In this document: piece after piece, positions 1-38,601 of the stretch
Layout: the number at the start of each line of letters is the position of its first letter
Position numbering within the stretch: the first letter of the stretch is position 1
From: a virus
Lineage: Duplodnaviria; Heunggongvirae; Uroviricota; Caudoviricetes
IMG/VR virus record: IMGVR_UViG_651053021_000003
Reading direction: 5' to 3' (one strand)
DNA length: 47,598 nt
The notes under the pieces: model-generated
Told to the model about the DNA's origin: nothing
The model's input: only the letters and a program-made list of their open reading frames with translations
The model's database searches: none
Program-made: the position numbers and the translations under genes

Positions 1-1284
1 TTACAGACTTCTGGACGGTTGCGCAGCTCTTACAACATGTGGTTGATCTTCTGCGGCGTCTTCCAGCGCACTTAAATCACGGTCTTTCACTTCTGGCATT
101 TTCAGCGCAGAGATTAAACCAATCACAGAATATGCCATGATCATAATGGCGATCGGATACCAGGATTCCGTCATGGTGCAGAAAATCCCCGCCAGGATAG
201 GACCAAAACCGGAAGCGATAAGACCACCAATTTCTTTAGAAATAGCCATTCGGGTAAAGCGGTTTTTACAGCCGAACATTTCTGCCATGGTAATGTTTTC
301 CAGAGCAAATAATCCCAGCACCGCACAGTTATGAATCACAATCAGTGCAACCATAATGGTGCTCGGGGCATAGCTTTTATCTACGATGATAGAAAGCATT
401 GGCCATGCCAGCACAATCGCAGAGGTATTCATAATAATATACGGGATCCGGCGACCAATTTTATCGGATAACCAACCAAGGAACGGAATGGTCATAAAGC
501 CGAGAATCGAACTGATCATCAATGCATCTGTTGGAATTGCTTTGTTAAACAATAACGTCTGCACTAAATAGCCTGCAAGGAAAGTCTGAATTAAACCGGA
601 GTTACCAGCCTGACCAAAACGCAGCCCTGTTGCCAGCCAGAAGGATTTGCTCTGGAACATGCTACCAGCAGGTGCAGGTTTTGCTGTCGGTTGGTTGCTG
701 TCGTTAACCTTCTCAAAGACCGGGCTTTCTTTCAGATTCATACGCAACCAGATAGCAAAGACCATCACGACAACGCTCGCCAGGAACGGTATACGCCATC
801 CCCACGCCAGCAGTTCCTCTTTACTGAGAATGAAGAACATAAAGGCCCAGATTGCCGTTGCGCTCAAGGTTCCGCAGTTAGTTCCCATAGCCACAAATGA
901 GGAGATAATTCCGCGCTTACCTTTTGGCGCATATTCCGCCAGCATCGTACCGGCACCGGAAATTTCCGCACCTGCACCCAACCCCTGAATAATACGCAGC
1001 GTCACCAGCAAGATGGGGGCAAAAACACCAATTTGTGCATAAGTCGGTAACACACCAATTAAGGTGGTACAGATCCCCATCATGGTGATGGTAATAAAGA
1101 GCACTTTTTTACGCCCTATTCTGTCGCCCATTTTGCCGAAAATAAATGCTCCGACAATACGTGCCACATAACCTGCACCATAGGTTCCCATTGCCAGAAT
1201 TAACGCCATTGCCGTTGATGATTCAGGAAAAAATATTTCATGAAACACTAACGCTGCGCCGAGCGAATATAACTGGAAGTCCAT
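1..1284 (-). CDS. ydfJ: MFS-family inner membrane transporter (YdfJ-like), 427 aa
   Basis: Full-length ORF with many hydrophobic segments and an MFS-like motif (GKMGDRIGRKK); stop codon at window bases 1-3; sits at left edge of prophage. Confidence 0.8.
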   Translation of the reverse strand: MDFQLYSLGAALVFHEIFFPESSTAMALILAMGTYGAGYVARIVGAFIFGKMGDRIGRKKVLFITITMMGICTTLIGVLPTYAQIGVFAPILLVTLRIIQGLGAGAEISGAGTMLAEYAPKGKRGIISSFVAMGTNCGTLSATAIWAFMFFILSKEELLAWGWRIPFLASVVVMVFAIWLRMNLKESPVFEKVNDSNQPTAKPAPAGSMFQSKSFWLATGLRFGQAGNSGLIQTFLAGYLVQTLLFNKAIPTDALMISSILGFMTIPFLGWLSDKIGRRIPYIIMNTSAIVLAWPMLSIIVDKSYAPSTIMVALIVIHNCAVLGLFALENITMAEMFGCKNRFTRMAISKEIGGLIASGFGPILAGIFCTMTESWYPIAIMIMAYSVIGLISALKMPEVKDRDLSALEDAAEDQPHVVRAAQPSRSL

Positions 1285-2069
1285 AATTCACAGGTGTTTT
1301 TTCCCATCCTGTGGTTTCCTTGGCGTTTTCTAGGTTTTTTCAGATAGTTGCATTTTTTAAAAAGCATCCTAAGTTCGATCTCAGTGTCTATCTGGGGCCT
1401 ATTTCTGTCCCATATATGCCCCAAAAAAACTCCTCAACAGATAAGTAGTTTTTTCATGGAGTTACGCGTAAAATCAATAACGGCTGGAAATCATTCAATA
1501 CTCGCACTATCGAAAAATTTACCAGCCAACCGCAGCACGTTCTTGCATAAGGCGTGTCTGCGGTTTTTCAACTATTCAGATACATCACTCCCATCACATT
1601 CATTCCTCCGCATCAAAGGCATATAGGCTATATCACCTTGATATTTTTCTTCTTCAGATAAAAACTGTTATCTATGTATACTTTTAAACCCAATCCGTGT
1701 AGAGTCTCTGCATAAGATAGTTTGCAGTTGCCACTTCAGCTTGCGCCATAAACCGCCTGATTTTTGCCGCCATCTGTTAGCATTCCTGTATACCTGAAAC
1801 GACAATGTTTATCTACGAACTTTAAGAACACCCAGGATAAAAATTGTCAACTATATCACATATAACACATTACTAATTCGAGGCTATATGAACAGCATAC
1901 TGATAATCACTTCGCTCCTTATCATATTCAGCATTTTTAGTCATGCTCTAATAAAATTAGGGATTGGCATATCCAATAACCCAGACAAAACCGATGTATA
2001 AGTCAACATATCCTGAATCAGACATACAATATCGCAATGAAAATCAATAATATTTTAAGGAATATATTC

Positions 2070-2303
2070 ATGAAATCAAAAGACACCCTAAAGTGGTTCC
2101 CTGCGCAGCTTCCTGAAGTCAGAATTATCCTAGGGGATGCTGTAGTGGAAGTAGCAAAACAGGGAAGACCTATCAATACCAGAACATTGCTTGATTACAT
2201 TGAAGGAAACATAAAGAAAAAATCATGGCTGGATAACAAAGAATTATTACAAACAGCGATATCAGTTCTTAAAGACAACCAAAATTTAAATGGTAAAATG
2301 TAA
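2070..2303 (+). CDS. ydfK: Cold-shock-induced small protein YdfK/YnaE family
   Basis: Translation MKSKDTLKWFPAQLPEV... matches recalled YdfK/YnaE; start moved to internal ATG at 2070 with AAGGAA upstream. Confidence 0.75.
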   Translation: MKSKDTLKWFPAQLPEVRIILGDAVVEVAKQGRPINTRTLLDYIEGNIKKKSWLDNKELLQTAISVLKDNQNLNGKM

Positions 2304-2619
2304 TATAATAAACTTACTTTTTTATCATTTTTCCACTTTAACAACATTTTGCTCCACTTTTCCACGACCAAACAACTTGAAATCTGGTTAAAATAACACG
2401 CAACACTATTCTTCTTCCTTGAGTCCGCCCGGAACTCGAAAAACAAACCGAGTTAAAGCTATTTTTCACAAAATCGATTTTGGGTCTCACCAAAATTACG
2501 GGGTTGCATACGCATTCGTTTATTTTCGAACGTGTACATACAAACATGCACAAAAATAATCAAAATTATTTTCTGAGATGCATTATGATATGAACACCAA
2601 TTTCGTATAGAGTCTCACT

Positions 2620-3210
2620 ATGTCTCGAATTTTTGCTTACTGTCGGATATCAACGCTGGATCAGACCACCGAAAATCAACGCCGGGAAATCGAAAGTGCA
2701 GGTTTTAAAATCAAACCTCAGCAAATAATCGAAGAACACATTAGCGGCTCAGCAGCAACCAGTGAGCGTCCTGGTTTTAACCGGTTGCTTGCTCGCCTGA
2801 AATGTGGTGATCAATTGATTGTGACAAAACTGGATCGCCTTGGTTGTAATGCAATGGATATCAGGAAAACAGTGGAACAACTGACCGAAACAGGTATCAG
2901 AGTGCATTGCTTAGCATTGGGGGGCATTGACCTGACCAGTCCAACAGGAAAAATGATGATGCAAGTAATTTCAGCAGTCGCTGAATTTGAACGAGACCTT
3001 TTACTTGAACGCACTCATTCCGGGATAGTAAGAGCCCGGGGCGCAGGGAAACGTTTTGGTCGACCACCTGTGTTAAATGAAGAACAGAAACAGGTGGTAT
3101 TCGAACGGATTAAGTCAGGTGTAAGTATAAGTGCCATTGCCCGGGAATTCAAAACCTCGCGGCAAACCATTTTAAGAGCCAAAGCAAAACTTCAGACACC
3201 TGACATATAA
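2620..3210 (+). CDS. pin: Serine recombinase / DNA invertase Pin (Gin/Hin/Cin family), 196 aa
   Basis: N-terminal resolvase catalytic domain (YCRISTLDQ) and C-terminal HTH; size typical of Pin/Gin. Confidence 0.9.
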
Positions 3211-3437
3211 AAAATAATCTCGGTGTGAGATGCCTTACGTCTTCCAAGCCCCCTTCCTTGCCGTAAATGGAAAGATACATCTAATTATAGAATTTATATG
3301 TTTTACCCTACGGCAGTGCTGGCCATTCAATATCCTGTGCAGTTGACGTATCAACACGGTTCAGCAACACCCGATACTTCTTCCAGGCTTCCCGCAACGA
3401 GGTTTCTTCCTCCGTTGCATATACAGCTCACCTTTTT

Positions 3438-3746
3438 TCACCCACGATTAACCAACAGCCAGACCAGCAGACACGCCACCACCGGCACAGCAAAATCCAT
3501 CAGGCTTGCCACATCCCACGCGCGCGGATCAAAACCGCCCCACCACGGCATATTCATTCGCTTGCCATGCCCGAACATTTCAATCCAGCGATATTCTGCC
3601 TGGGTGTGTTCACGCGCAATGAAGAACGTACAACCGGCTATCGCCCCGTAAGCCCAGTTCCCGGTAAAAAGACCAATCAGTAGCTGCGCAGCCACAGCAC
3701 AAAGCGCATGAAGGAAAGGTGTTATATCCATTTTCATCCTACCCAA
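3438..3746 (-). CDS. Hypothetical small membrane protein (102 aa)
   Basis: ORF with 2-3 hydrophobic helices located between pin and the tail-fibre genes; no recognised family. Confidence 0.4.
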   Translation of the reverse strand: MGRMKMDITPFLHALCAVAAQLLIGLFTGNWAYGAIAGCTFFIAREHTQAEYRWIEMFGHGKRMNMPWWGGFDPRAWDVASLMDFAVPVVACLLVWLLVNRG

Positions 3747-3773
3747 TAAAACGGGGCGCTCGGCCCCTTAATA

Positions 3774-4814
3774 TTATTTAGACGCAAGCGCCGCCTCAAT
3801 TGCAGATAATCTTTGTCTTAATTCTGCGTTTTCTTCTTCCAGTGCTGTTATTCTGTCGTCTGACTCTCTGGCTACCTGAACAAGCAAGCCAGTAACACCA
3901 GAATAATCTACTGTGTAATAACGTTCACCTTCTTCACCTTCCGATCCGCTTGCACCGTCCTGATATTTCATTGCGGAACCTACAACTTCTGGGATTGCTT
4001 CCAGAGCTTCCTGTGCAATGACACCAGCATAGGGCATACCGTTTTCTTTAAGCGTGTATGTATAGCCGTTCATTTTACGGATGCGGTCGGTTGCATTATC
4101 GATCACCTGAATGTTGTCTTTCAGATCCCGGTCGGAATGCTGGTTAAATGCGGTGGCATGACATGCACCATTAACGCTTAACATATAGGTGTTATCGGTA
4201 TTTTTCTGCGCATAGAACATATAAGCGCCACCATCAACACCGACTTCATAAACAACAGGACGGCTGGTGTTGCCCCACAATTGAGCAGTAACACCAGCAT
4301 AAGCGGTTCCCTGTGTGTTTAATGTCATGGTTGACCCATGATTGGCATATTTGATCTGTAATGTGTCGGTGTAATCAAATTTAATAAGCGCGTTACTTCC
4401 ACGCTTGCTGTATGACATAAGGCAGTTACCCATTTTGAGGTATCCGCTGTCACCGGGAAAAATCATCGTACCGCCATAAAGGTTGGTAAAGTCCCAGCAA
4501 ATGTTTGTCCCGTTATCGTTCAGGTTAAGGCGCGCCATTGCGTTACCTGGACTGTCTATCCATTTTTTGAGGTATAGTTCGCAATACGCATCCTCAACAC
4601 CTGCCGTCCTGTGAGTTGAGCGGAGTTTTCTCCCAAATATAGCTCCGCTAGTTGGCAATACCTGCTGATACCATGAAGCAGACCAGTCACCAACGATTTC
4701 ATCTTTGCTGTCTACATATAATTTTGTTGCGTAGCTTCCTTGATCGTTTTTTAATTTGCTAACGTCGGATTTTAGCGTTTTGATGTCATCAGGAATTACT
4801 GTCGATGTAGCCAT
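3774..4814 (-). CDS. Tail fibre / receptor-binding protein with C-terminal intramolecular-chaperone (peptidase S74-like) domain
   Basis: C-terminal ~110 aa (SDRDLKDNI...GVIAQE...VDYSGVTGLLVQ...coiled coil...ALASK) resembles self-cleaving chaperone domains of phage fibres. Confidence 0.55.
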   Translation of the reverse strand: MATSTVIPDDIKTLKSDVSKLKNDQGSYATKLYVDSKDEIVGDWSASWYQQVLPTSGAIFGRKLRSTHRTAGVEDAYCELYLKKWIDSPGNAMARLNLNDNGTNICWDFTNLYGGTMIFPGDSGYLKMGNCLMSYSKRGSNALIKFDYTDTLQIKYANHGSTMTLNTQGTAYAGVTAQLWGNTSRPVVYEVGVDGGAYMFYAQKNTDNTYMLSVNGACHATAFNQHSDRDLKDNIQVIDNATDRIRKMNGYTYTLKENGMPYAGVIAQEALEAIPEVVGSAMKYQDGASGSEGEEGERYYTVDYSGVTGLLVQVARESDDRITALEEENAELRQRLSAIEAALASK

Positions 4815-4823
4815 TTTTCTTCC

Positions 4824-5105
4824 TCACATCCAGCCACGAAGTTGATGCTCAACAGCAACCACGTATTCATCGAATAATGACGATATTTGCGAATCATTAA
4901 TGATGCGCACGTTTACAAAATATCCGTCTTCCTTAACACATACCGGTTCGCCATCTTCAGTCAGTTCTCCGGTTTCTTTGTACACGTTACCTATCACGTC
5001 AATAAGAATATCATCCTGCATCGACTCGTCATCATAATAGCCAGTGCTATCCATAAAGGCCGAAAAGTCGGCCCTGTCGGCAAATTTGAGTGTTAAATCT
5101 TTCAT
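4824..5105 (-). CDS. Putative tail-fibre assembly chaperone / accessory protein (93 aa)
   Basis: Acidic small ORF whose start overlaps the stf stop codon (translational coupling); position analogous to tfa. Confidence 0.4.
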   Translation of the reverse strand: MKDLTLKFADRADFSAFMDSTGYYDDESMQDDILIDVIGNVYKETGELTEDGEPVCVKEDGYFVNVRIINDSQISSLFDEYVVAVEHQLRGWM

Positions 5106-7477
5106 TAGATTGACTCCCCCACCTGAGCATCAGTCAATGCCTTGTGCCATATTCTGAAATTCCTGACATGACCAAATAAATGACGTAACCCGGCTGTAGT
5201 CTGGCCTCCAATACGGATAATTGCGGTGTTCTGAATACAGGACCATGTGGTTTTTGTTTCGCTGGATATATGCCCGTTACTTACTGAGCACGTAGACTGC
5301 TCTGACTTTACACGCATCCCCATAACCATTTTTTCAAGCGATGCGTTTTCGTTTACCCGTCTGTTAGCTCCTCCAATATCGCAATAAGGAAATCCGTCGT
5401 AATCTGTTGAACGACCGAAGCCAAGAATAATAGCCGCTCCGGTTTGATGACCGCCGGTATCAAAAACACGTGGCGCTGCATTTGGCGTTTTATACCAGTT
5501 CTTATGTACCTCACAAAGAACCGTAAAAGGAAGATTATAAAGATTATTCTTAATTGGAACTGTAACTATATCGCTTGCGCGGGTCGCCGCCGTCGCTCCT
5601 GATATAATAAAAGATGATACACAAGGCCCATCTTCTACTTGTGGGGTGGCCAGATAAATATAGTCACCAGATACGGTTGCCCCGCTCTGCTTAGGAGAAT
5701 ACTGTATCTGAGAGCCTATTTTTAACTCCCCATCAATTGCCTGAATTGTTGCCTCTGCAAAAATCCATCCGGTAGCTTCGTCCTTTCTGACTCTCGCTGT
5801 AATCCTTGAGGCAGCACCGCCTGTCATATTAATTTCAAGCGTTTGTGTATCAATATACGCATCACCAAGAAAAGTTGTTGCGCTACCGTCATATTTATCA
5901 AACCGGATACGCAACCTTACCTGCAGTTCTGTTTTAAAACGACATGAGGTTGTCACGTGTTTATTATCGCCTGAGACATCAACTGACTTTGTTGCAGCAA
6001 TTGATGCCATATTAATGGCTGAGGTTTGCCCAATCAGAGAATCGTTGCAGACAAACTTTCCATAGGTAAAACCAAAATTATCCGTCCCTGTTTCGGGCAC
6101 ATCCATATTTGACGATCGCCCCCAACTGGCAGGGCTTTCCGAATTGAGCATGTAGTTTGTTCTTTGCCCCTCAATAAGCAGGCCATCACGTTCAAATCGT
6201 GGCTCGTCAATGGCAGCCTCTGTCAGCACACCAGATTTGTTAATATAGGTTGCTTTCGATGCACGTTTAAACTTAACAATCTTGTCGCCAGGCATCGTTA
6301 TTTCATCGTCACCAATAACAATTTTTTTATATGACGGCGAAAAGCCCGTAATCATATCCAGCGAATCGTTAAATGGTATCCACACATCAGGCAGCGGCTG
6401 TAAGACATATTTATACGGCTCCGCAGCCTGGCTTGCGTACTCTCTGGCTGCATCTTCGCTTGCTTTAGCTGCCGTCTGGCTTGCTGCCGATGCTTTCGCT
6501 GAGTTCGCAGCCGCTGTTTCGCTCACCTTTGCGTTGGTTTCACTGGTTTTTGCTGCTTTTTGACTGTTAGCTGATGCAGTGGCAGAAGCAGCCGCCGCGC
6601 TTGCAGAACTGGCTGCGGCACTCTCGCTTTGAGCCGCTGCATCCTGACTGCTTTTCGCCGCAGTTTCACTGGCTTTGGCATTCGTTTCGCTGGTCTTCGC
6701 TGCCGTCTGGCTGGACTTTGCGTTAGTTTCACTCGTCTTCGCAGCTTTCTGGCTGTTAGCCGTAGCAGTTGCTGATCCAGCTGCTGAAGTCGCAGAACCG
6801 GCTGCCGCGCTCTCGCTTTGGGCTGCTGCAACCTGGCTGTTTTTTGCCGCAGTTTCACTGGCTTTAGCATTCGTTTCGCTGGTCTTCGCTGCCGTCTGGC
6901 TGGACTTTGCGTTGGTTTCGCTCGTCTTTGCGGCTGTCTCGCTATTTTTCGCGTTGGTTTCTGATTTTTTAGCTGCTGTTGCGGAGTTTGCCGATGCAGT
7001 CTGCGAGGCCGCTGCCGCCTGTGCGCTGTTAGCTGCATTCGTTTCTGAGGTTTTCGCCGCGTTCTTCGATGATGCCGCTGCAGTTTCGGATTTCTTTGCC
7101 GCCGCTGCGCTCTGAGAGGCGGCTTCAGCGTTGCGTGCCGCTTCTTCCACCATTTCCTCAAAACGACGCAATGCCTCCGGCATGACATCATCTTCCGTCA
7201 TGGCACCGAGAAAATCATTCAGCGTACCTGGTCTGGAACCTTCATAGACGGTAATGGTTCCGGCATGTGAAGGCGGAAAACCTTCAACAAGCAGGATAAC
7301 GCTGTACTGGCCATACTCAACATCCATGCTGTAACGCCCGGCTTCATCCGGATTTTCAGAGGCCACCGTGTTCACCAGTACCGTGGTGCTGTTACGCTTT
7401 GCCTTCAGTTGAATAGTGCAGTTCTGTATTGGTTTTCCCGCACCATCTTTCAGCACACCTGAAATCTGTACTGCCAT
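5105..7477 (-). CDS. stf: Side tail fibre protein Stf (lambda Stf-like N-terminus, collagen-like repeat shaft, LamG-like C-terminal domain)
   Basis: N-terminus MAVQISGVLKDGAGKPIQNCTIQLKAKRN matches lambda Stf; ATG at 7477 with GGAG upstream; Ala/Ser/Thr-rich repeats; C-terminal lectin-like segment. Confidence 0.85.
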   Translation of the reverse strand: MAVQISGVLKDGAGKPIQNCTIQLKAKRNSTTVLVNTVASENPDEAGRYSMDVEYGQYSVILLVEGFPPSHAGTITVYEGSRPGTLNDFLGAMTEDDVMPEALRRFEEMVEEAARNAEAASQSAAAAKKSETAAASSKNAAKTSETNAANSAQAAAASQTASANSATAAKKSETNAKNSETAAKTSETNAKSSQTAAKTSETNAKASETAAKNSQVAAAQSESAAAGSATSAAGSATATANSQKAAKTSETNAKSSQTAAKTSETNAKASETAAKSSQDAAAQSESAAASSASAAAASATASANSQKAAKTSETNAKVSETAAANSAKASAASQTAAKASEDAAREYASQAAEPYKYVLQPLPDVWIPFNDSLDMITGFSPSYKKIVIGDDEITMPGDKIVKFKRASKATYINKSGVLTEAAIDEPRFERDGLLIEGQRTNYMLNSESPASWGRSSNMDVPETGTDNFGFTYGKFVCNDSLIGQTSAINMASIAATKSVDVSGDNKHVTTSCRFKTELQVRLRIRFDKYDGSATTFLGDAYIDTQTLEINMTGGAASRITARVRKDEATGWIFAEATIQAIDGELKIGSQIQYSPKQSGATVSGDYIYLATPQVEDGPCVSSFIISGATAATRASDIVTVPIKNNLYNLPFTVLCEVHKNWYKTPNAAPRVFDTGGHQTGAAIILGFGRSTDYDGFPYCDIGGANRRVNENASLEKMVMGMRVKSEQSTCSVSNGHISSETKTTWSCIQNTAIIRIGGQTTAGLRHLFGHVRNFRIWHKALTDAQVGESI
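6480..6960 (-). repeat. In-frame tandem repeats (~170-230 nt units) encoding AAKTSETNAKSSQT-type shaft repeats of Stf
   Basis: Near-identical DNA blocks (e.g. gcagtttcactggctttggcattcgtttcgctggtcttcgctgccgtctggctggactttgcg) occur twice; protein shows duplicated ~57-aa units. Confidence 0.7.
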
Positions 7478-32950: not shown

Positions 32951-34039
32951 TTACGCCAGTACGCCAATTGCCAGCGCGCGATCGATAAAACGAAATATCA
33001 GCTCCAGTTGGGAGCCATACTTCTCTTCAAATGCCACTGTATCCGTATGCAGCTCGTTGTGATGCTTTCTGCACAAAGGCAACACAAAGAGATCATGTGC
33101 TTTTGTTCCCATTCCGCCCTGCCCGTGACCAATCAGATGATGCGGATCGTCGGCTGGCATACCGCAGCAAGCACACGGCTGTGTCTTAACCCAACGTGTG
33201 TATTTCTCCTTAACCCAGCGGCGACGTTTAGGCAGCTTCATGAAAGATTCCGGAGACTCTGGATCAACGGTGATGCTTACCACCGTCTTTTCCTGTGGTG
33301 GTTTTTGTTGCTGGTGGGCGTAAGGCAACGGTGCAAGATTTTTTGTGCGTTGTTTCAATATGCTGGTGGCGGTCTGCTCTCCCGGTACGATGTCGCTCTC
33401 GCGGTACACCGAGCAGATTTTTTCCGCTGGTAATCCCAGCGAACGACGTAATACCGCTTCCGGTAGCGCGTCCGCCACCTGATTGCGGAGCGCCCACCAG
33501 GATAATTCAGCCAGAGATAATTCACGCTCCTGCGTACCGCTTATTGCGTGACCGATGACGTCAATCATCCATGCTGACAGGTTTTGATGAGCAAGTTGCT
33601 CGAGTGATTCGGATGTCTGGTCACGCAGTTGGTTGTCGCAGTGCCAGCACAACACCATTGCGCCGGTACCATAACGGTGAATGACGGTTTCGCTGTGATG
33701 ATAATCGCCGTGCGGCCACTGGCAGGATTTAATATGGCGCAACAGCCAGTCAGACAATGCACCAGCACCACCAGCAGCACGAATCACCCGTGCGTTACTG
33801 AAAAACGGCAGCAATGTTTTGTCTTCCACCAGCGGCTGGCGAACGGCAGGAACGACCCCGGACGGCAGATTACGCATGCTTTTCGGTTCCGGCTCCACCA
33901 GTACCCGGGTATTGTGGAATACCGGCATGGATTCACGGCCTAGTTTAAGGACCACCAGCCCAAGCTCTGGCACCAGAACAGGTCTAAGTAATACCCGCAC
34001 GTTACCTCCAGATCCGTTGCTGGAAAGTGCGGGACGCAC
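32951..34039 (-). CDS. ydfU: DUF968-family prophage protein YdfU-like
   Basis: Cys/His-rich C-terminal region; synteny with Q and rem in Qin; true start may be internal ATG at 33928. Confidence 0.7.
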   Translation of the reverse strand: MRPALSSNGSGGNVRVLLRPVLVPELGLVVLKLGRESMPVFHNTRVLVEPEPKSMRNLPSGVVPAVRQPLVEDKTLLPFFSNARVIRAAGGAGALSDWLLRHIKSCQWPHGDYHHSETVIHRYGTGAMVLCWHCDNQLRDQTSESLEQLAHQNLSAWMIDVIGHAISGTQERELSLAELSWWALRNQVADALPEAVLRRSLGLPAEKICSVYRESDIVPGEQTATSILKQRTKNLAPLPYAHQQQKPPQEKTVVSITVDPESPESFMKLPKRRRWVKEKYTRWVKTQPCACCGMPADDPHHLIGHGQGGMGTKAHDLFVLPLCRKHHNELHTDTVAFEEKYGSQLELIFRFIDRALAIGVLA

Positions 34040-34280
34040 GTGGTGGGCGTTCGGAATAAGGCAGCCTGACAGAGATTATCCAGTGCCGATAGTCGAGACT
34101 GAGAGCTTTCTTAACCTCGAACCCGCGCCTGCGGTAAGAATGAATCAGCCATTCGGCCTGTTCTTCAGTGCATGGGGGATGCTGGTACCAATCAGATTTA
34201 AATGCGTGAGAGCGCCGCCCGTGCCTGCTGGCAAAGACGGCAGAATCATCAGAATTGTGTAATTTGGTATCGTGCGCCAT
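34002..34280 (-). CDS. Hypothetical protein in the rem position
   Basis: 92-aa ORF upstream of ydfU; assignment by synteny only. Confidence 0.4.
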   Translation of the reverse strand: MAHDTKLHNSDDSAVFASRHGRRSHAFKSDWYQHPPCTEEQAEWLIHSYRRRGFEVKKALSLDYRHWIISVRLPYSERPPRASRTFQQRIWR

Positions 34281-34350
34281 CGGTTGTCTCTGCTGGCGCA
34301 GCAGGTGCCAGTTGTTCAGGCTGGCCTGTGGATTGTAAACCAGAATACGT

Positions 34351-34375
34351 AAAACAAAAACCCGCCGAGGCGGGT
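34351..34375 (-). terminator. Rho-independent terminator after the HTH-ImmA operon
   Basis: CCCGCC...GGCGGG hairpin followed by T-run on minus strand, ~12 nt after the operon stop. Confidence 0.5.
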
Positions 34376-34386
34376 ATGAATGAGAA

Positions 34387-35532
34387 TTATTTTTGTTTTA
34401 TGGTAAATGAAATAACATTGTCAGAATGAATCATATCTGATTCTTTAAATCGTGTAATTGCAGATAACTCATTTAAGGGAAGAGCAAAGATATCAGTTAA
34501 CTCAGTTACCTTTATGATTGAATGCTTATCAAGAAGTAAAAGTAACTTATTAAGTAACTCAGGCTCTTCTTTTGGGATTGCATCATCTAACGGCTCCCTA
34601 CGATGGAATGGCGCTAATTGCTTAAATATATAGCTTTTCTGATTATCGCTGATTAACTTAAGGCTATGACTCCTCATGGCAATACTACCGATAGATGTAA
34701 TCCAACGTAGTTTTAATCGTTCTAACGCTGATAAATTTGGACTATAAAATTCACGCCCGAAAGTGGTGGCTGGCATTAAAAAGCTGGAGGCAAAATAATC
34801 GGCCTGCAACTCCACCAGGTCGAATAATTCTTTATCATTCAGGTAGTCATCCTCCACTGCCCTATGCATAATTAAATGGCCAAGTTCATGAGCAAGACTA
34901 AATCGCATGCGAACAGCTGTCTTCGAGCTATCTAACATAATTAAAGGCCGCCCATTATGCCAGAACGAAAAGGCATCAACTTTCTCACCAGAAGGTAAAT
35001 GAGAAACCACGATTCCTTTATTTTCAACAAGTCTAGTTAAATTGAGTATTGGACCATCACCTAACCCCCAAAAACGCCTTAATTGGGTGGACATATCCTC
35101 AATATCAGATAGAGACAGAACCTCAAAATCAATAATATCGAATTCAGGCAGAACCACATCTGGTAATTGAGCATATTTTAGACATTCATCCAATATTAAT
35201 GCCGCCCAACGCCCACGTGTTTTCCCTGTAACTCGAGCCTTTTTGGTCGCAGTTGAACGACTTCTAAAATGAATCGCCCCCTCCAGAGATGGAGAAGCAC
35301 TGGAGGCTAAGAAAAATCGTTCTGGAAATCCTAACACCTTGGCTATTGCAGAAAGTGTATCAGCAGAGGGAGACTTCAACCCCTTCTCAAATGACGAAAT
35401 AGCTTGTCTTGAAATATTGAGCACTCTGGCAAGTTCAGCCATCGTCAACCCTTTTGCCTCTCTTGCCTCCTCAAGGCGACGAGGATTAAACGATTTATCA
35501 GTAAATGGTGTTTGTGCGATATTCATGCTCAT
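34387..35532 (-). CDS. Fused XRE-type HTH / ImmA-IrrE family zinc metallopeptidase (COG2856-like) protein, 381 aa
   Basis: N-terminal HTH (LTMAELARVLNISRQAISSFEKG); HEXXH motif HELGH in central domain; ~42% GC. Confidence 0.85.
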   Translation of the reverse strand: MSMNIAQTPFTDKSFNPRRLEEAREAKGLTMAELARVLNISRQAISSFEKGLKSPSADTLSAIAKVLGFPERFFLASSASPSLEGAIHFRSRSTATKKARVTGKTRGRWAALILDECLKYAQLPDVVLPEFDIIDFEVLSLSDIEDMSTQLRRFWGLGDGPILNLTRLVENKGIVVSHLPSGEKVDAFSFWHNGRPLIMLDSSKTAVRMRFSLAHELGHLIMHRAVEDDYLNDKELFDLVELQADYFASSFLMPATTFGREFYSPNLSALERLKLRWITSIGSIAMRSHSLKLISDNQKSYIFKQLAPFHRREPLDDAIPKEEPELLNKLLLLLDKHSIIKVTELTDIFALPLNELSAITRFKESDMIHSDNVISFTIKQK

Positions 35533-36143
35533 GATTGCTGTGATTTAATTATTTGTTCGGTAAGAATCTTGATTTTATCTTCAATCTCAGAATCCACATT
35601 TTCTGCTTCAACTTCTACCATCGTCATAATTGGTAAAGACTCAGTATAAAGAATCCCGTAATTATCCGAAGAAGGAACAGTTAAATTCAGTTTGGACAAG
35701 TGCTGATTACTGCCATCATGTAACATATAAACATGTCCACCAGACGCTCTCCCATCCAGGGAGTCGGCATTTTCATCCCCAAAATTCAATTCATAATTTT
35801 GATTAGCGTAAACAGCTCTATACAATGCCTGCTTAGGAAGTGGCGCATTACCCGATAAATGATGTGCCGTCATTTTCCAGTTGTTCGAGTGAATCGCAAT
35901 GTGTTTACAATTTTTAGCAGCATTGCTACCGACTTCAAAATCCAGCCCCACACGCTTAGCCGCATTCTCAAGCAATGCATCGGCATAAAACCAGCGCAAA
36001 TATGACTGTGCTTGAGCCCAAAAAGAACCAAACTCTTTTGCCTTCATATGCGAATGAAGATAAGCCTGTGCTAACGCGATCGAAAGCTCTTTGCGGCACT
36101 CCTTGTCATATGCTTCTAACAACTGTTGAGATAAATTCTGCAT
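35529..36143 (-). CDS. Hypothetical 204-aa protein co-operonic with the HTH-ImmA gene
   Basis: ATGA stop-start overlap with downstream gene; no recognised motifs. Confidence 0.65.
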   Translation of the reverse strand: MQNLSQQLLEAYDKECRKELSIALAQAYLHSHMKAKEFGSFWAQAQSYLRWFYADALLENAAKRVGLDFEVGSNAAKNCKHIAIHSNNWKMTAHHLSGNAPLPKQALYRAVYANQNYELNFGDENADSLDGRASGGHVYMLHDGSNQHLSKLNLTVPSSDNYGILYTESLPIMTMVEVEAENVDSEIEDKIKILTEQIIKSQQS

Positions 36144-36169
36144 GACCGTAATATCCTTGTTGTTTTGGT

Positions 36170-36206
36170 GTCAACCATATTTCCATTTAACATCGACTTT
36201 GTCAAC
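36170..36206 (-). promoter_or_regulatory. Candidate sigma70 promoter for the 204-aa/HTH-ImmA operon
   Basis: Perfect -35 TTGACA on the minus strand with an AT-rich -10-like element ~17 nt downstream. Confidence 0.3.
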
Positions 36207-36218
36207 CAGATAGATGCT

Positions 36219-36241
36219 AGAAAAACCCGCCGAAGCGGGTT
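36219..36241 (-). terminator. Rho-independent terminator downstream of hok
   Basis: AACCCGC-cgaa-GCGGGTT hairpin followed by T-run on minus strand. Confidence 0.5.
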
Positions 36242-36309: not shown

Positions 36310-36465
36310 TTACTCCTCAGGTTCGTAAGCTGTGAAGACAGCGACCTCCGTCTGGCCGGTTCGGATTCGTACCTCGCAGAGGTCTTTCCTCGTTACCAGT
36401 GCCGTCACAATGACGGTTAAACAGATGACGATCAGGGCGATTAACATCGCCTTTTGCTGCTTCAT
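36310..36465 (-). CDS. hok: Hok/Gef family type I toxin (51 aa)
   Basis: MKQQKAMLIALIVICLTVIVTALVTRKDLCEVRIRTGQTEVAVFTAYEPEE matches recalled Hok; an in-frame upstream extension to 36522 (70 aa) may be a mok-like leader. Confidence 0.9.
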   Translation of the reverse strand: MKQQKAMLIALIVICLTVIVTALVTRKDLCEVRIRTGQTEVAVFTAYEPEE

Positions 36466-36504
36466 AGCCTGCTTCTCCTTGCCTTTCGGCACGTAAGAGG
36501 CTAA

Positions 36505-36590
36505 CCTAGATTTGCCGTTCATAGATTGAGCCTCAGATTAATGTTAAGCGTCTTGCAGGACGCGTAATGTTAACTGGGGCTTTTCTCTAT
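36505..36590 (+). ncRNA. Putative Sok-like antisense RNA (approximate)
   Basis: Inferred from hok architecture; candidate TTGCCT-N17-TAACCT promoter and hairpin GCGTC-ttgcag-GACGC on the plus strand opposite the hok leader. Confidence 0.3.
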
Positions 36591-36676
36591 CTGCCTTTGG
36601 TGTTCATGCCTGAGGCAGATAGCCTCAAGCACCCGCAGCAATTCTACTTAACTCACGTCACCTCGCCAATATAAAA

Positions 36677-36766
36677 TCAATCAGAAAGGCGATCCATAAG
36701 AACAACAGCAAGGCAATAAATTGCCATTACAGCAGCAATAGCCAGCGCACATTTGAGAACCAGCAC
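36677..36766 (-). CDS. Candidate 29-aa hydrophobic peptide (possible type I toxin-like small membrane protein)
   Basis: AGGAGG then 5 nt then GTG; translation (M)LVLKCALAIAAVMAIYCLAVVLMDRLSD has one TM helix and a charged tail. Confidence 0.3.
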   Translation of the reverse strand: MLVLKCALAIAAVMAIYCLAVVLMDRLSD

Positions 36767-37266
36767 CACAACCTCCTGTATTGGACGTACACCAGTCCTG
36801 ATAAATATGAGGCTGTCTCGTCAGTGATTCAATACAACTATTGGGTATAGTTTCTGTGATTTTGTTCTGTAGAAATGGAACACAACAACCAGTCACCACC
36901 AGCACTTCTTTAAATACGCCAAGTCCGACGCAAGCTAACTTTCTAGTCCGCTTTGAGCGAGAAGCAGACATTTACTTAACTGGATAGCAAGAGACTTCAT
37001 ACTACAGCTCATACATCATGGTTGATCCCGGAGTTTTCAGTAATGGAAATTGCCCACATGATCGTACCGTAACCACATTAGAAGCAGGTTCACTTTGTGA
37101 ATTTTGATTGTGTCAACCTATCAGTTTTGAATTTTTATAAAAAATATTCGCAAATTTGTGAATTATGAGAGACATACGAGCATGGACAACCAATGTTACT
37201 TTCATACACAATTAAGCAACATGATAAAAATACACTGACTTTAGTAAGTAAATTTAGGAGATTGCG

Positions 37267-38601
37267 ATGTTTAGCTTAATCATGGCCGGAGAACCGGACG
37301 TTTTTGACCGCTGGCCGTGTATGGACCCTGAGCTTAAAGAAGGCAAGGAAAGCTTCTCGATGTCCCGCATGCTGGAAGGCACCCCAAGCGATATTTACAG
37401 TAAATTAACACCAATAAGACCCGATACCTTAAGAGAACTCGCCAAGTTACCGGTGTTGTTCATGACCGAAATTTATACAAAAGATGATGAATATGATACA
37501 AACAAGTACATCAGGATCAGGCTTGGGGAAATAAGAAATTTACGTAAAGATGGTGGCGATATTTTATTTTCTTTCAAGATTAATCATGATTTTGGAGAAA
37601 TAACAAATCCCCAAACGACATTATATAAAGAAACCCTAGGACTAGGATCTTTCGGGTTAAGTCGTACACATTGGGCAGTAAAAAATAAGGATTTGAATAT
37701 TGTTCTGGAATTACTTGGTTTAAACCAAAAAAATAGCCATCTGAAAGGTACAATCAAATTAAAAAAACAAACATACCCAGTAGTCGAGAATATTATAGAT
37801 TATCTTGATTTCATTAGGAAAAACTTTCGTGATGGTCTCATTACCTTTTATCGTGGACACTCTAAAAGCTCATATGAGCTTGTCCCCTCTCTTTACAGAA
37901 AAAATCAAAACGGGACGTACAGGCATCTTGCTTCAGAATCTGATTTAGTACGTGAAATACTCAGCGCAAGACCAAATGAATTTAAGGGGGATAAATTTAC
38001 GATTGATAAACTTGTCCGCATGCAGCATTATGGCTTGCCTACAAGACTCTTAGACATTACATCTAACCCACTGATAGCATTATATTTTGCTTGCTGTTCG
38101 AACCCCGATGAAAACGGACAGGTGATTTCGTTTTCAACAAACAGAAAGAAAATTAAATATTTCGACTCAGATACAGTGAGCTGTATAGCAAACTTATCAC
38201 TTTTATCTTACGAAGAGTTGGAAAAATTGTCTTCCATTGATGCCAGAAAAGGTAATATGGAGTTATTAGAACTCACTGATAAACTTGCAGACCTTATACA
38301 GAATGAAAAATCATATTTCAGAAACAGAATAAGCCCTGATGACTTAAAGAAAGTTGTTTTCCTTAAGGCTAAAATAAATAATGAACGCATACAATCTCAG
38401 GCAGGAGCTTTTCTTCTGTTCGGACTTGATCCCATTTTACCGGAAACAGATGCTGAGTTTCCTCTTAACAGAGTGGAGATAGCGAACAAAAATAAAATTC
38501 TGGAAGAGCTGGCACAGCTTAATATATCCGAAAGCACTGTATATCCCAGCATGGAGAAAACGGCAGCAGAAATTACAAAAAAGTTTTTATCGGTATCATA
38601 A
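37267..38601 (+). CDS. FRG-domain protein (444 aa), function unknown
   Basis: Motifs FYRGHSKSSYELVPSLYR, RMQHYGLPTRLLDITSNPLIALYFAC, QAGAFLLFG; AGGAG RBS; body ~33% GC, first ~45 codons ~50% GC. Confidence 0.8.
   Translation: MFSLIMAGEPDVFDRWPCMDPELKEGKESFSMSRMLEGTPSDIYSKLTPIRPDTLRELAKLPVLFMTEIYTKDDEYDTNKYIRIRLGEIRNLRKDGGDILFSFKINHDFGEITNPQTTLYKETLGLGSFGLSRTHWAVKNKDLNIVLELLGLNQKNSHLKGTIKLKKQTYPVVENIIDYLDFIRKNFRDGLITFYRGHSKSSYELVPSLYRKNQNGTYRHLASESDLVREILSARPNEFKGDKFTIDKLVRMQHYGLPTRLLDITSNPLIALYFACCSNPDENGQVISFSTNRKKIKYFDSDTVSCIANLSLLSYEELEKLSSIDARKGNMELLELTDKLADLIQNEKSYFRNRISPDDLKKVVFLKAKINNERIQSQAGAFLLFGLDPILPETDAEFPLNRVEIANKNKILEELAQLNISESTVYPSMEKTAAEITKKFLSVS

Follow-up and report, generated by a model that had tools for sequence, protein, structure and literature searches.

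A probable RosmerTA-type toxin–antitoxin cassette carried as a moron by prophage Tritos of Escherichia coli LF82

Introduction

What does a compact pair of genes beside hokD contribute to the lambdoid prophage that carries it? The window analyzed here (47,598 nt; IMGVR_UViG_651053021_000003) is Tritos, a Qin-like prophage of E. coli LF82. A first-pass annotation, made from the letters alone, had singled out within it a two-gene unit in which a gene of no recognizable motif is followed by one encoding a helix-turn-helix (HTH) domain fused to an ImmA/IrrE-like peptidase, and had proposed it as a candidate new defense or toxin–antitoxin (TA)-like module. We conclude with good confidence that the pair, called rmrT and rmrA below, is a RosmerTA-type TA and abortive-infection cassette and a moron of Tritos.

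RosmerTA was named in a study that demonstrated its anti-phage defense and found that a construct lacking rmrA (ΔrmrA) was not transformable (Millman 2022, bioRxiv 10.1101/2022.05.11.491447). The partners of RmrA are diverse RmrT toxins, and the system of phage Kita also defends (Ernits et al. 2023, PMC10440598). A defense phenotype is on record for the OLC-716 and Kita systems only, both of them narrow-spectrum (10.1101/2022.05.11.491447; PMC10440598). Rosmer systems depend on ClpX/ClpP (PMC12795458; 10.1101/2020.05.25.114553; 10.64898/2025.12.09.693261), and in three Pectobacteriaceae rmrA has proved essential (10.64898/2025.12.09.693261).

Results

A cassette in place of the rem segment

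In a blastn comparison, homology to K-12 Qin stops at window position 34297 and restarts at 36221. The K-12 counterpart of the intervening DNA is a rem-containing segment of 428 bp near hokD, and on this alignment the rmrTA cassette is a replacement for that segment. A simple insertion between rem and hokD was ruled out, since the rem segment has been swapped for the cassette and the neighboring ORF is not Rem. That ORF (92 aa, 34002..34280) had been taken for rem in the first-pass annotation, but on comparison it showed zero similarity to K-12 Rem. The GC content of 34298-36220 is 0.404, as against 0.522 in the left flank and 0.508 in the right, which agrees with the lower GC noted earlier.

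In LF82 the cassette adjoins hok/sok and the FRG candidate defense gene PDC-S15, and relBE is the occupant of the adjacent slot in K-12. An Rfam scan for RNA genes in the cassette returned nothing but sok, beside hokD. The regulators CI, Cro and Q are encoded by Tritos itself, and the 26-kb annotated neighborhood contains no CBASS genes.

Table 1. Features of the rmrTA segment, in window coordinates.
Feature	Position	Strand	Description
Variable segment including rmrTA	34298..36220	-	1,923 bp; blastn against K-12 Qin
Intrinsic terminator	34350..34375	-	Stem-loop 34375..34360, then T-tract; terminator scan
rmrA, predicted antitoxin and regulator	34387..35532	-	381 aa, ATG; XRE HTH, M78 Zn-peptidase, C-terminal region
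Peptidase_M78 (ImmA/IrrE) of RmrA	34672..35025	-	aa 170-287; Pfam PF06114, 9.7e-19
HELGH of RmrA	34890..34876	-	aa 215-219
HTH_3 (XRE-type) of RmrA	35314..35475	-	aa 20-73; Pfam PF01381, 2.4e-16
rmrT, predicted toxin	35529..36143	-	204 aa, ATG start, pI 5.7; PADLOC RmrT
Shine-Dalgarno AAGGA of rmrT	36154..36158	-	Read from sequence
Repeat 2, TGGTTGACA	36169..36177	-	Covers predicted transcription start; candidate RmrA operator
Extended -10	36177..36185	-	TG (36185-36184), one base, AAATAT (36182-36177)
Repeat 1, TGGTTGACA	36200..36208	-	Includes -35 TTGACA (36205-36200); candidate RmrA operator

Operon structure and a conserved promoter

The rmrT stop and the rmrA start overlap by 4 nt on the minus strand (ATGA, 35532-35529). 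Translation of the pair is coupled, and the operon has a promoter and a terminator of its own. Both ORFs and the ATGA junction described in the first-pass annotation were recovered, and its view of a compact unit bounded by a TTGACA promoter and a terminator is upheld by the conservation of the promoter and by a terminator scan. The scan placed the letters ACCCGCCTCGGCGGGT plus TTTTGTTTTA at 34375..34360 on this strand.

The -35 and -10 elements are separated by a 17-nt spacer, with TG at the extended -10 position. A consensus promoter scan did not call the rmrT promoter, because its -10 is weak. TTGACA, the TG-containing spacer and AAATAT are conserved in at least six operons with unrelated flanks, and in an alignment of homologous operons the TG and the hexamer positions A2 and T6 of the extended -10 are invariant.

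Superimposed on this promoter are two direct repeats of TGGTTGACA, 31 nt apart, with repeat 2 downstream of repeat 1. The whole window holds only these two copies (0.43 expected by chance), both at the rmrT promoter, and both are invariant in all homologous operons compared, again with unrelated flanks. By analogy, the repeats are probably RmrA operators. The TTGACA of repeat 2 was considered as a second promoter and rejected, since no conserved -10 follows it.

Gene 2 is predicted to encode a full-length RmrA

The earlier description of gene 2 as an HTH fused to a HELGH peptidase is confirmed by its HTH_3 and Peptidase_M78 matches. Downstream, the protein also has the Glu of the VExQADYFA motif, and HELGH together with this Glu is intact in 10 of 10 homologous operons. 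Around HEXXH the protein can be aligned to CapP. Against the PADLOC RmrA model PDLC03947 it scores 5.5e-102 over aa 11-380 of 381, and 13 more RmrA models match; the PADLOC capP and capH models also hit, at 1.5e-21 and 1.7e-10, both far weaker than the RmrA match. With the verified RmrA of E. coli OLC-716 it shares 31% identity across 354 aa (E = 4e-41). On these matches gene 2 is assigned as a full-length RmrA. The NCBIfam spr1629-family model NF052239 aligns over the full length at 187.2 bits, short of the equivalog cut-off of 335, so that gene 2 would be a related antitoxin and not an spr1629 ortholog.

In some annotations gene 2 is given as 379 aa, starting at the second ATG. This start was ruled out, as the first ATG, which lies within the overlap, is the only one of the two that homologs conserve.

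Gene 1 is predicted to be a divergent RmrT

Gene 1 had been described as motif-free, and for general databases this stands: there was no match in Pfam, NCBIfam or PDB sequences, whether gene 1 was searched singly or as a profile of 9 or 57 sequences. It does not hold for the PADLOC RmrT models, which do match. The hit to PDLC03933 is partial and modest (7.5e-10, 36.8 bits, aa 47-161), and PDLC03934 matches at 6e-8. In an exhaustive HMM search, all 57 full-length relatives matched PDLC03933, the best at 1.8e-53. Gene 1 is therefore classed, from its profile matches, as a divergent member of the RmrT family, with the qualification that the PADLOC RmrT models were built on adjacency to RmrA, so that "RmrT" is as much a positional as a homology class.

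Similarity to the verified OLC-716 RmrT (239 aa) is absent both by BLASTP (E = 2.3) and by hhalign with the 57-sequence profile (probability 0.1%), and by these comparisons the two toxin clades are unrelated. Such a mismatch does not bar the pair from Rosmer, since diversity of the toxins is part of how the group is defined (PMC10440598).

Alignment of the 57 relatives identified Y28, N74, N78, H81, T92, R104, R109, N116, H142, P157 and E181 as conserved. The maximum Kyte-Doolittle value in a 19-residue window is 0.70 and the GRAVY is -0.47; a membrane toxin like the RmrT of Kita was ruled out, as a hydrophobic segment is absent. A structure model built on the 57-sequence alignment reached a pLDDT of 88, whereas one from the alignment of 9 close homologs reached 38 and was discarded. 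The retained model weakly suggests a restriction-endonuclease-like fold, of which the core would be αβββαβ. Neither an acidic residue nor a Lys is conserved in the β-core among the 57 relatives, and a canonical PD-(D/E)xK nuclease was ruled out, the D…(D/E)xK catalytic residues not being conserved.

The pair travels as a unit

The cassette is present in 41 of 5,426 complete E. coli genomes, and plasmid-borne copies were not found. Exact-protein look-ups and IMG/VR loci form the evidence base for co-occurrence. In every retrieved locus with downstream DNA (~30 loci, 10 distinct operons), the gene immediately after RmrT encodes an RmrA; toxin identity across these loci falls from 100 to 30%. Profile scans of genome contigs with two alignments (A1, A4) returned zero relatives. 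RmrT and RmrA co-diverge. Against a homolog of 93% identity, dN/dS is ~0.10 for both genes, synonymous sites being saturated in remoter pairs; by this estimate both are under purifying selection.

These loci show the pair moving as a unit among unrelated prophage and defense-island slots. It lies downstream of cI in a Yersinia prophage (L002), in the position equivalent to that of λ rexAB; between Ea22 and nin-region genes (L004); after a primase gene (L005); in an island that also carries Shedu SduA_C, Lit Peptidase_U49 and ABC-3C domains (L007); and in a Q-downstream moron slot (L034). Slots of this defense type are a contextual pointer to a defense role in LF82.

Both genes are transcribed in the lysogen according to published measurements, which place LF82_281 30-fold and LF82_280 14-fold above the prophage background, and hokD, upstream of the cassette, at 3,792-fold (PMC9928086). 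The rmrTA signal could be due in part to read-through from hokD. No mention of WP_001180546 or WP_000062344 was found in the papers searched.

Discussion

Assignment to RosmerTA and comparison with known systems

Because gene 2 is predicted to be RmrA and gene 1 a divergent RmrT, the pair is assigned to RosmerTA: RmrA is matched at full length, and its co-oriented, adjacent partner falls within the RmrT profile family. The toxin/effector with an HTH-peptidase that was first proposed fits this homology, but the suggestion of a new module does not survive, as RosmerTA is a common module, already annotated and with a known function, even if its mechanism is still poorly understood. The pair represents a known type of system, with a toxin from a divergent subfamily.

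The closest comparison is with OLC-716 RosmerTA, likewise a two-gene operon among E. coli accessory genes with the toxin gene first, and with an RmrA of the same composition (XRE HTH, M78 Zn-peptidase with HELGH, C-terminal region). The OLC-716 toxin differs from that of LF82 in length (239 aa versus 204 aa) and is unrelated in sequence. The Rosmer pair of Gordonia phage Kita, RmrTA, is likewise carried on a phage and has a protease antitoxin of the RmrA type. It has been demonstrated to be a TA system that defends against a narrow set of coliphages (PMC10440598). The Kita toxin has transmembrane regions and depolarizes the membrane, whereas LF82 RmrT is predicted to be soluble. RipAB (Spr1630/Spr1629) of S. 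pneumoniae and E101_02645/02644, a prophage TA pair of E. coli E101, are Rosmer-family systems with HTH and ImmA-like antitoxins, and they are the source of the ClpX/ClpP-dependence model that we apply to LF82. RipA targets the DnaN clamp, but there is no evidence of DnaN targeting for the LF82 toxin, and the E101 protein accessions differ from those of the LF82 pair. λ RexAB and other prophage abortive-infection morons resemble rmrTA as accessory two-gene cassettes expressed in the lysogen; they lack any sequence or domain kinship to it and work by another mechanism.

Alternatives to an anti-phage role

From analogy with the Rosmer systems that have been studied, we infer that LF82 RmrT is toxic and that the pair defends against phage. 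It might instead be a plain addiction or stabilization TA with no anti-phage role, which penalizes loss of the prophage by post-segregational killing as hok/sok does. TA architecture and translational coupling are what such a module would have; hok/sok lies alongside, and the adjacent K-12 slot holds relBE. Within the Rosmer family itself, S. pneumoniae RipAB is tied to competence and not to phage defense (PMC12795458), and the defense phenotypes of the other members amount to two systems with narrow spectra. We nonetheless consider this explanation quite improbable. Those Rosmer members that were tested, with unrelated toxins, do defend; the cassette occupies classic prophage defense slots (rex-equivalent, in a Shedu/Lit island, beside PDC-S15); and post-segregational killing would be of little benefit to a prophage integrated in the chromosome.

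The domain content of gene 2 raises another alternative. ImmR/ImmA of ICEBs1, DdrO/IrrE of Deinococcus and CapH/CapP of CBASS also combine an XRE HTH with an M78 HEXXH peptidase, and in them the peptidase cuts the repressor, turning on the element, the regulon or the CBASS operon. Gene 2 might similarly be a stress switch of the ImmR/ImmA or IrrE/DdrO kind acting on prophage or host genes, with gene 1 as a non-toxic co-factor or sensor. The likeness of its domains to ImmA, IrrE and CapP on the one hand and to the XRE repressors (the ICEBs1 regulator, DdrO) on the other is consistent with this, and the conserved repeats at the promoter that drives it point to DNA binding with sequence specificity. 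At the domain level, then, the analogy drawn in the first-pass annotation is sound. It goes no further, for no CBASS lies nearby and Tritos has CI and Cro, as well as Q, of its own. In the three known switches the two domains are separate proteins, whereas LF82 RmrA is a fusion partnered by a toxin gene, and over its full length it matches RmrA rather than ImmA or IrrE. The confinement of TGGTTGACA to the rmrT promoter gives no sign of further targets in the element. The pair moves self-contained among unrelated elements, and in other Rosmer systems rmrA is essential or undeletable. A stress switch is thus highly improbable.

A further proposal concerns the toxin: RmrT could be an active PD-(D/E)xK-type DNA endonuclease, breaking down the DNA of host and phage alike when released. 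The lack of the conserved catalytic residues argues against it; we consider it unlikely.

A working model

As a RosmerTA-type cassette, rmrTA would act as follows. RmrT would be a soluble cytoplasmic toxin that RmrA keeps harmless in the uninfected cell. Control may be post-translational, through binding of RmrT by RmrA, M78-dependent proteolysis or both, probably with host ClpXP, and also transcriptional, in the manner of classical type II TA autoregulation, through occupation by the RmrA HTH of the two TGGTTGACA repeats that overlie the -35 and the start of transcription. A sensitive phage, on infecting the cell, would tip this balance, and the freed RmrT would arrest or kill the cell ahead of completion of the phage cycle, so that the lysogen population, and hence the prophage, would be protected. 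The best guess for its target is nucleic acid or the associated machinery, reached by means of a degenerate restriction-endonuclease-like scaffold.

A more specific version, which is speculative and rather unlikely, is that RmrT has kept an endonuclease fold minus its metal site and acquired a pocket of Asn, His, Thr and Arg residues (N74, N78, H81, T92, R104, R109, H142) with an undescribed activity, for instance metal-independent RNA cleavage or stoichiometric block of a nucleic-acid machine. The RmrA M78 domain and ClpXP would destroy RmrT continuously, and the system, acting as a guard, would be set off by a phage that disturbs host proteolysis or RmrA synthesis; the TGGTTGACA pair would then be a direct-repeat operator, unusual for an XRE HTH.

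Implications

The RefSeq and Tritos labels for these genes ("hypothetical protein", "helix-turn-helix domain-containing protein" or ImmA/IrrE) can be replaced by that of a RosmerTA defense/TA cassette. For the Rosmer field the locus offers a soluble, confidently modeled toxin clade with few conserved residues, a defined candidate operator and a tractable host, and the pair bears on how a peptidase-HTH antitoxin neutralizes unrelated toxins, on the need for ClpXP and on the triggers. LF82 is a Crohn's-associated strain and a target of phage therapy, and a putative abortive-infection module expressed in the lysogen, lying beside the candidate defense gene PDC-S15, may shape which therapeutic phages succeed against it.

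The cassette encodes a predicted toxin-antitoxin pair of the RosmerTA family

Gene 2 (rmrA) contains HTH_3 (aa 20-73) and Peptidase_M78 (aa 170-287) domains, in agreement with the fusion of an HTH to an ImmA-type peptidase described in the first-pass annotation. RmrA models match it end to end (PADLOC PDLC03947, 5.5e-102, aa 11-380, and 13 others), with far lower scores for the capP and capH models. It is 31% identical over 354 aa (E = 4e-41) to the verified RmrA of E. coli OLC-716, for which the protein sequences were taken from Millman's supplement. All ten RmrA proteins examined retain both HELGH and, downstream of it, the Glu in the VExQADYFA motif, an argument for the importance of peptidase catalysis.

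Gene 1 (rmrT) had been described as lacking any recognizable motif. This holds for Pfam and NCBIfam, which returned no match, but PADLOC RmrT models do match, modestly (PDLC03933, 7.5e-10; PDLC03934, 6e-8). To test the weak match, a profile built from close homologs was run in an exhaustive HMM search against 1.84 billion representative proteins; it recovered 78 relatives, nearly all of 200-220 aa. Because all 57 full-length relatives match PDLC03933 (best E-value 1.8e-53) and none has a Pfam domain, the profiles identify gene 1 as a divergent member of one of the RmrT families already modelled. The LF82 toxin is unrelated to the verified OLC-716 toxin (BLASTP E = 2.3; profile-sequence probability 0.1%). 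Diverse RmrT toxins pair with an HTH-ImmA antitoxin, and a phage-borne member has been validated (Ernits et al., PMC10440598). The RmrT of Gordonia phage Kita depolarizes membranes (PMC10440598), whereas LF82 RmrT is predicted from its sequence to be soluble, acidic and without a transmembrane segment.

An RmrA gene directly follows every gene 1 homolog with downstream DNA available, and in most cases the 4-nt overlap is kept. The loci number about 30, in 10 distinct operons, and toxin identity ranges from 100% to 30%. The locations vary: one pair is flanked by Ea22-like and nin-region genes, another follows a primase gene, a third comes after cI in a lambdoid prophage of Yersinia, and a fourth lies in a defence island (Logan SRR32618922 contig, 1-5705) together with ABC-3C-type domains (MC6, CTD10/DUF2326), Shedu (SduA_C), a Lit-like Peptidase_U49 and an HTH protein. 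The two genes are obligately paired and portable between elements. In the Yersinia contig (L002, 4689-7757) rmrTA lies downstream of, and co-oriented with, a cI-like repressor gene (HTH + Peptidase_S24) and before an N-like antiterminator, a location equivalent to that of λ rexAB, which also lies downstream of cI. A further divergent pair occupies the moron slot downstream of Q in another E. coli prophage (N51, NZ_CM165887.1, 3931-5687), where Stx phages carry stx. There, a 201-aa RmrT-like gene (WP_032298929.1; 72% DNA identity over 27% of rmrT) and a 353-aa HTH protein follow Q and a tRNA Ile-Arg-Arg cluster and adjoin a TerB-family gene.

The pair is a RosmerTA system. The earlier proposal of a new module was right in spirit and wrong on novelty: judged by its matches, the LF82 pair is a new member of a known family, and existing defence-system HMMs detect the cassette.

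Operon structure and a conserved promoter

The proposed two-gene operon with an ATGA junction, promoter and terminator is borne out by the coordinates, a terminator scan and the promoter footprint. The gene 2 ATG and the gene 1 stop codon share 4 nt. In some public annotations gene 2 begins two codons further downstream (379 aa), but only the first ATG is conserved in homologous operons, so that the overlap is the real junction. Both genes are under purifying selection: compared with a homolog of 93% identity, dN/dS is about 0.10; in more distant pairs synonymous sites are saturated and pN is 0.1-0.33. The GC content of the cassette, 0.404, is below that of its flanks (0.522 and 0.508), as had been noted.

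Features of the rmrTA cassette and its neighbors
Feature	Position	Strand	Remarks
gene 1 (rmrT)	36143..35529	minus	204 aa
gene 2 (rmrA)	35532..34387	minus	381 aa
terminator	34375..34360	minus	stem-loop + T-tract; scan; ~12 nt past stop codon
-35 TTGACA	36205-36200	minus (coding strand)	upstream sequence
spacer	between -35 and -10	minus	17 nt, ends TGg; upstream sequence
-10 AAATAT	36182-36177	minus	upstream sequence
AAGGA	36158-36154	minus	10 nt 5' of ATG
hokD	36465..36310	minus	directly upstream of rmrTA
hokD terminator	~36243-36223		AACCCGCTTCGGCGGGTTTTT
sok antisense RNA	36460-36634		in the hokD/sok region 36310-36634 (minus); Rfam RF01794, 111.7 bits
92-aa ORF	34002-34280	minus	
96-aa Cys-rich ORF	36681-36971	minus	between sok and FRG gene
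FRG-domain gene	37267-38601	plus	444 aa; GC 0.37

A generic promoter scan did not call the TTGACA promoter. In an alignment of the sequences upstream of six homologous operons, taken from unrelated genomic contexts, the flanks could not be aligned, yet TGGTTGACAAA…AAATG.AAA..TGGTTGACA was invariant, covering the -35, the TG of the extended -10 and A2/T6 of the -10. More distant operons keep this layout, and even next to a toxin of only 30% identity a degenerate version is seen, again with a 31-nt period. Such a phylogenetic footprint carries far more weight than a consensus match. One TGGTTGACA repeat lies over the -35 and the other over the predicted transcription start; the window contains these two copies and no more.

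A hotspot in the Tritos prophage

The window matches E. coli LF82 (NC_011993.1) at 100% identity and equals the prophage that was deposited under the name Escherichia phage Tritos, a lambdoid element of the Qin type whose integration site adjoins rspB. Its end coincides with that of the Tritos integrase gene (1630238 in NC_011993.1), and it thus approximates the LF82 prophage region beside rspB. Homology to K-12 Qin ends at 34297 and resumes at 36221, so that a 1,923-bp cassette replaces a 428-bp K-12 segment with rem. The supposed rem neighbor is a 92-aa ORF unrelated to K-12 Rem and without Pfam or PADLOC matches. Its DNA is 94% identical to K-12 sequence that carries no annotation and lies between ydfU and rem; LF82 lacks true rem and has rmrTA in its place.

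The hokD terminator abuts the rmrTA promoter. Just beyond hokD/sok, K-12 carries relBE, whereas LF82 has a low-GC FRG-domain gene in the place of relBE/ydfV, which matches the candidate defence family PDC-S15 (PDLC04936, 1.2e-98; Pfam FRG, 9.6e-22). With hok/sok and relBE in K-12 and PDC-S15 in LF82, this stretch of Qin-like prophages is a TA/defence hotspot. Other E. coli genomes with the same cassette have QueH or small ORFs where LF82 has the FRG gene. The 96-aa Cys-rich ORF, absent from the RefSeq LF82 annotation and without Pfam or PADLOC matches, is probably not a gene. The cassette, essentially one allele, occurs in 41 of 5,426 complete E. coli genomes, about 3,000 of which have the flanks, and is absent from plasmids.

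Published RNA-seq counts both genes with the morons that Tritos expresses in the lysogen (PMC9928086); their levels are 30-fold and 14-fold above the prophage background. Read-through into rmrTA is possible, since the upstream hokD is transcribed about 3,800-fold over that background in LF82 (PMC9928086).

Proposed mechanism and alternatives

By analogy with other Rosmer systems, RmrT would be toxic and RmrA would neutralize it; ΔrmrA is lethal in another such system and rmrA is essential elsewhere (10.1101/2022.05.11.491447; 10.64898/2025.12.09.693261). Both the M78 active site and host ClpXP probably take part in neutralization. In three Pectobacteriaceae, in S. pneumoniae and in E. coli E101, carrying a Rosmer system makes ClpX or ClpP essential, and the toxins of these systems are unrelated (PMC12795458; 10.1101/2020.05.25.114553; 10.64898/2025.12.09.693261). 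The RmrA HTH probably represses its own operon through both TGGTTGACA repeats, as candidate operators, and phage infection would release the toxin and abort the infection. That the pair is purely an addiction module seems to us quite unlikely. A regulatory switch of the ImmR/ImmA kind, with a partner that is not toxic, is very improbable, since Tritos has its own CI/Cro/Q, the prophage holds no further copy of TGGTTGACA and the pair moves between elements.

The suggested structure prediction for gene 1, made by AlphaFold with the 57-sequence alignment, gave a confident model (pLDDT 88.4, pTM 0.78): in order, a helix of 50 residues, two sets of three β-strands separated by a helix, and an amphipathic helix at the C-terminus. 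An active PD-(D/E)xK DNase is rather unlikely because catalytic residues are missing; across the family the β-core has no conserved acidic residue or (D/E)xK. The conserved residues are Y28, N74, N78, H81, T92, R104, R109, N116, H142, P157 and E181, and the model suggests that RmrT is probably a degenerate version of an endonuclease-like scaffold, whose conserved pocket is non-canonical.

For the RosmerTA family, the modest new points are the replacement of rem by rmrTA in a hokD-centred hotspot, the deeply conserved paired direct-repeat promoter and candidate operator, and the soluble, endonuclease-like, catalytically non-canonical fold predicted for this toxin clade.
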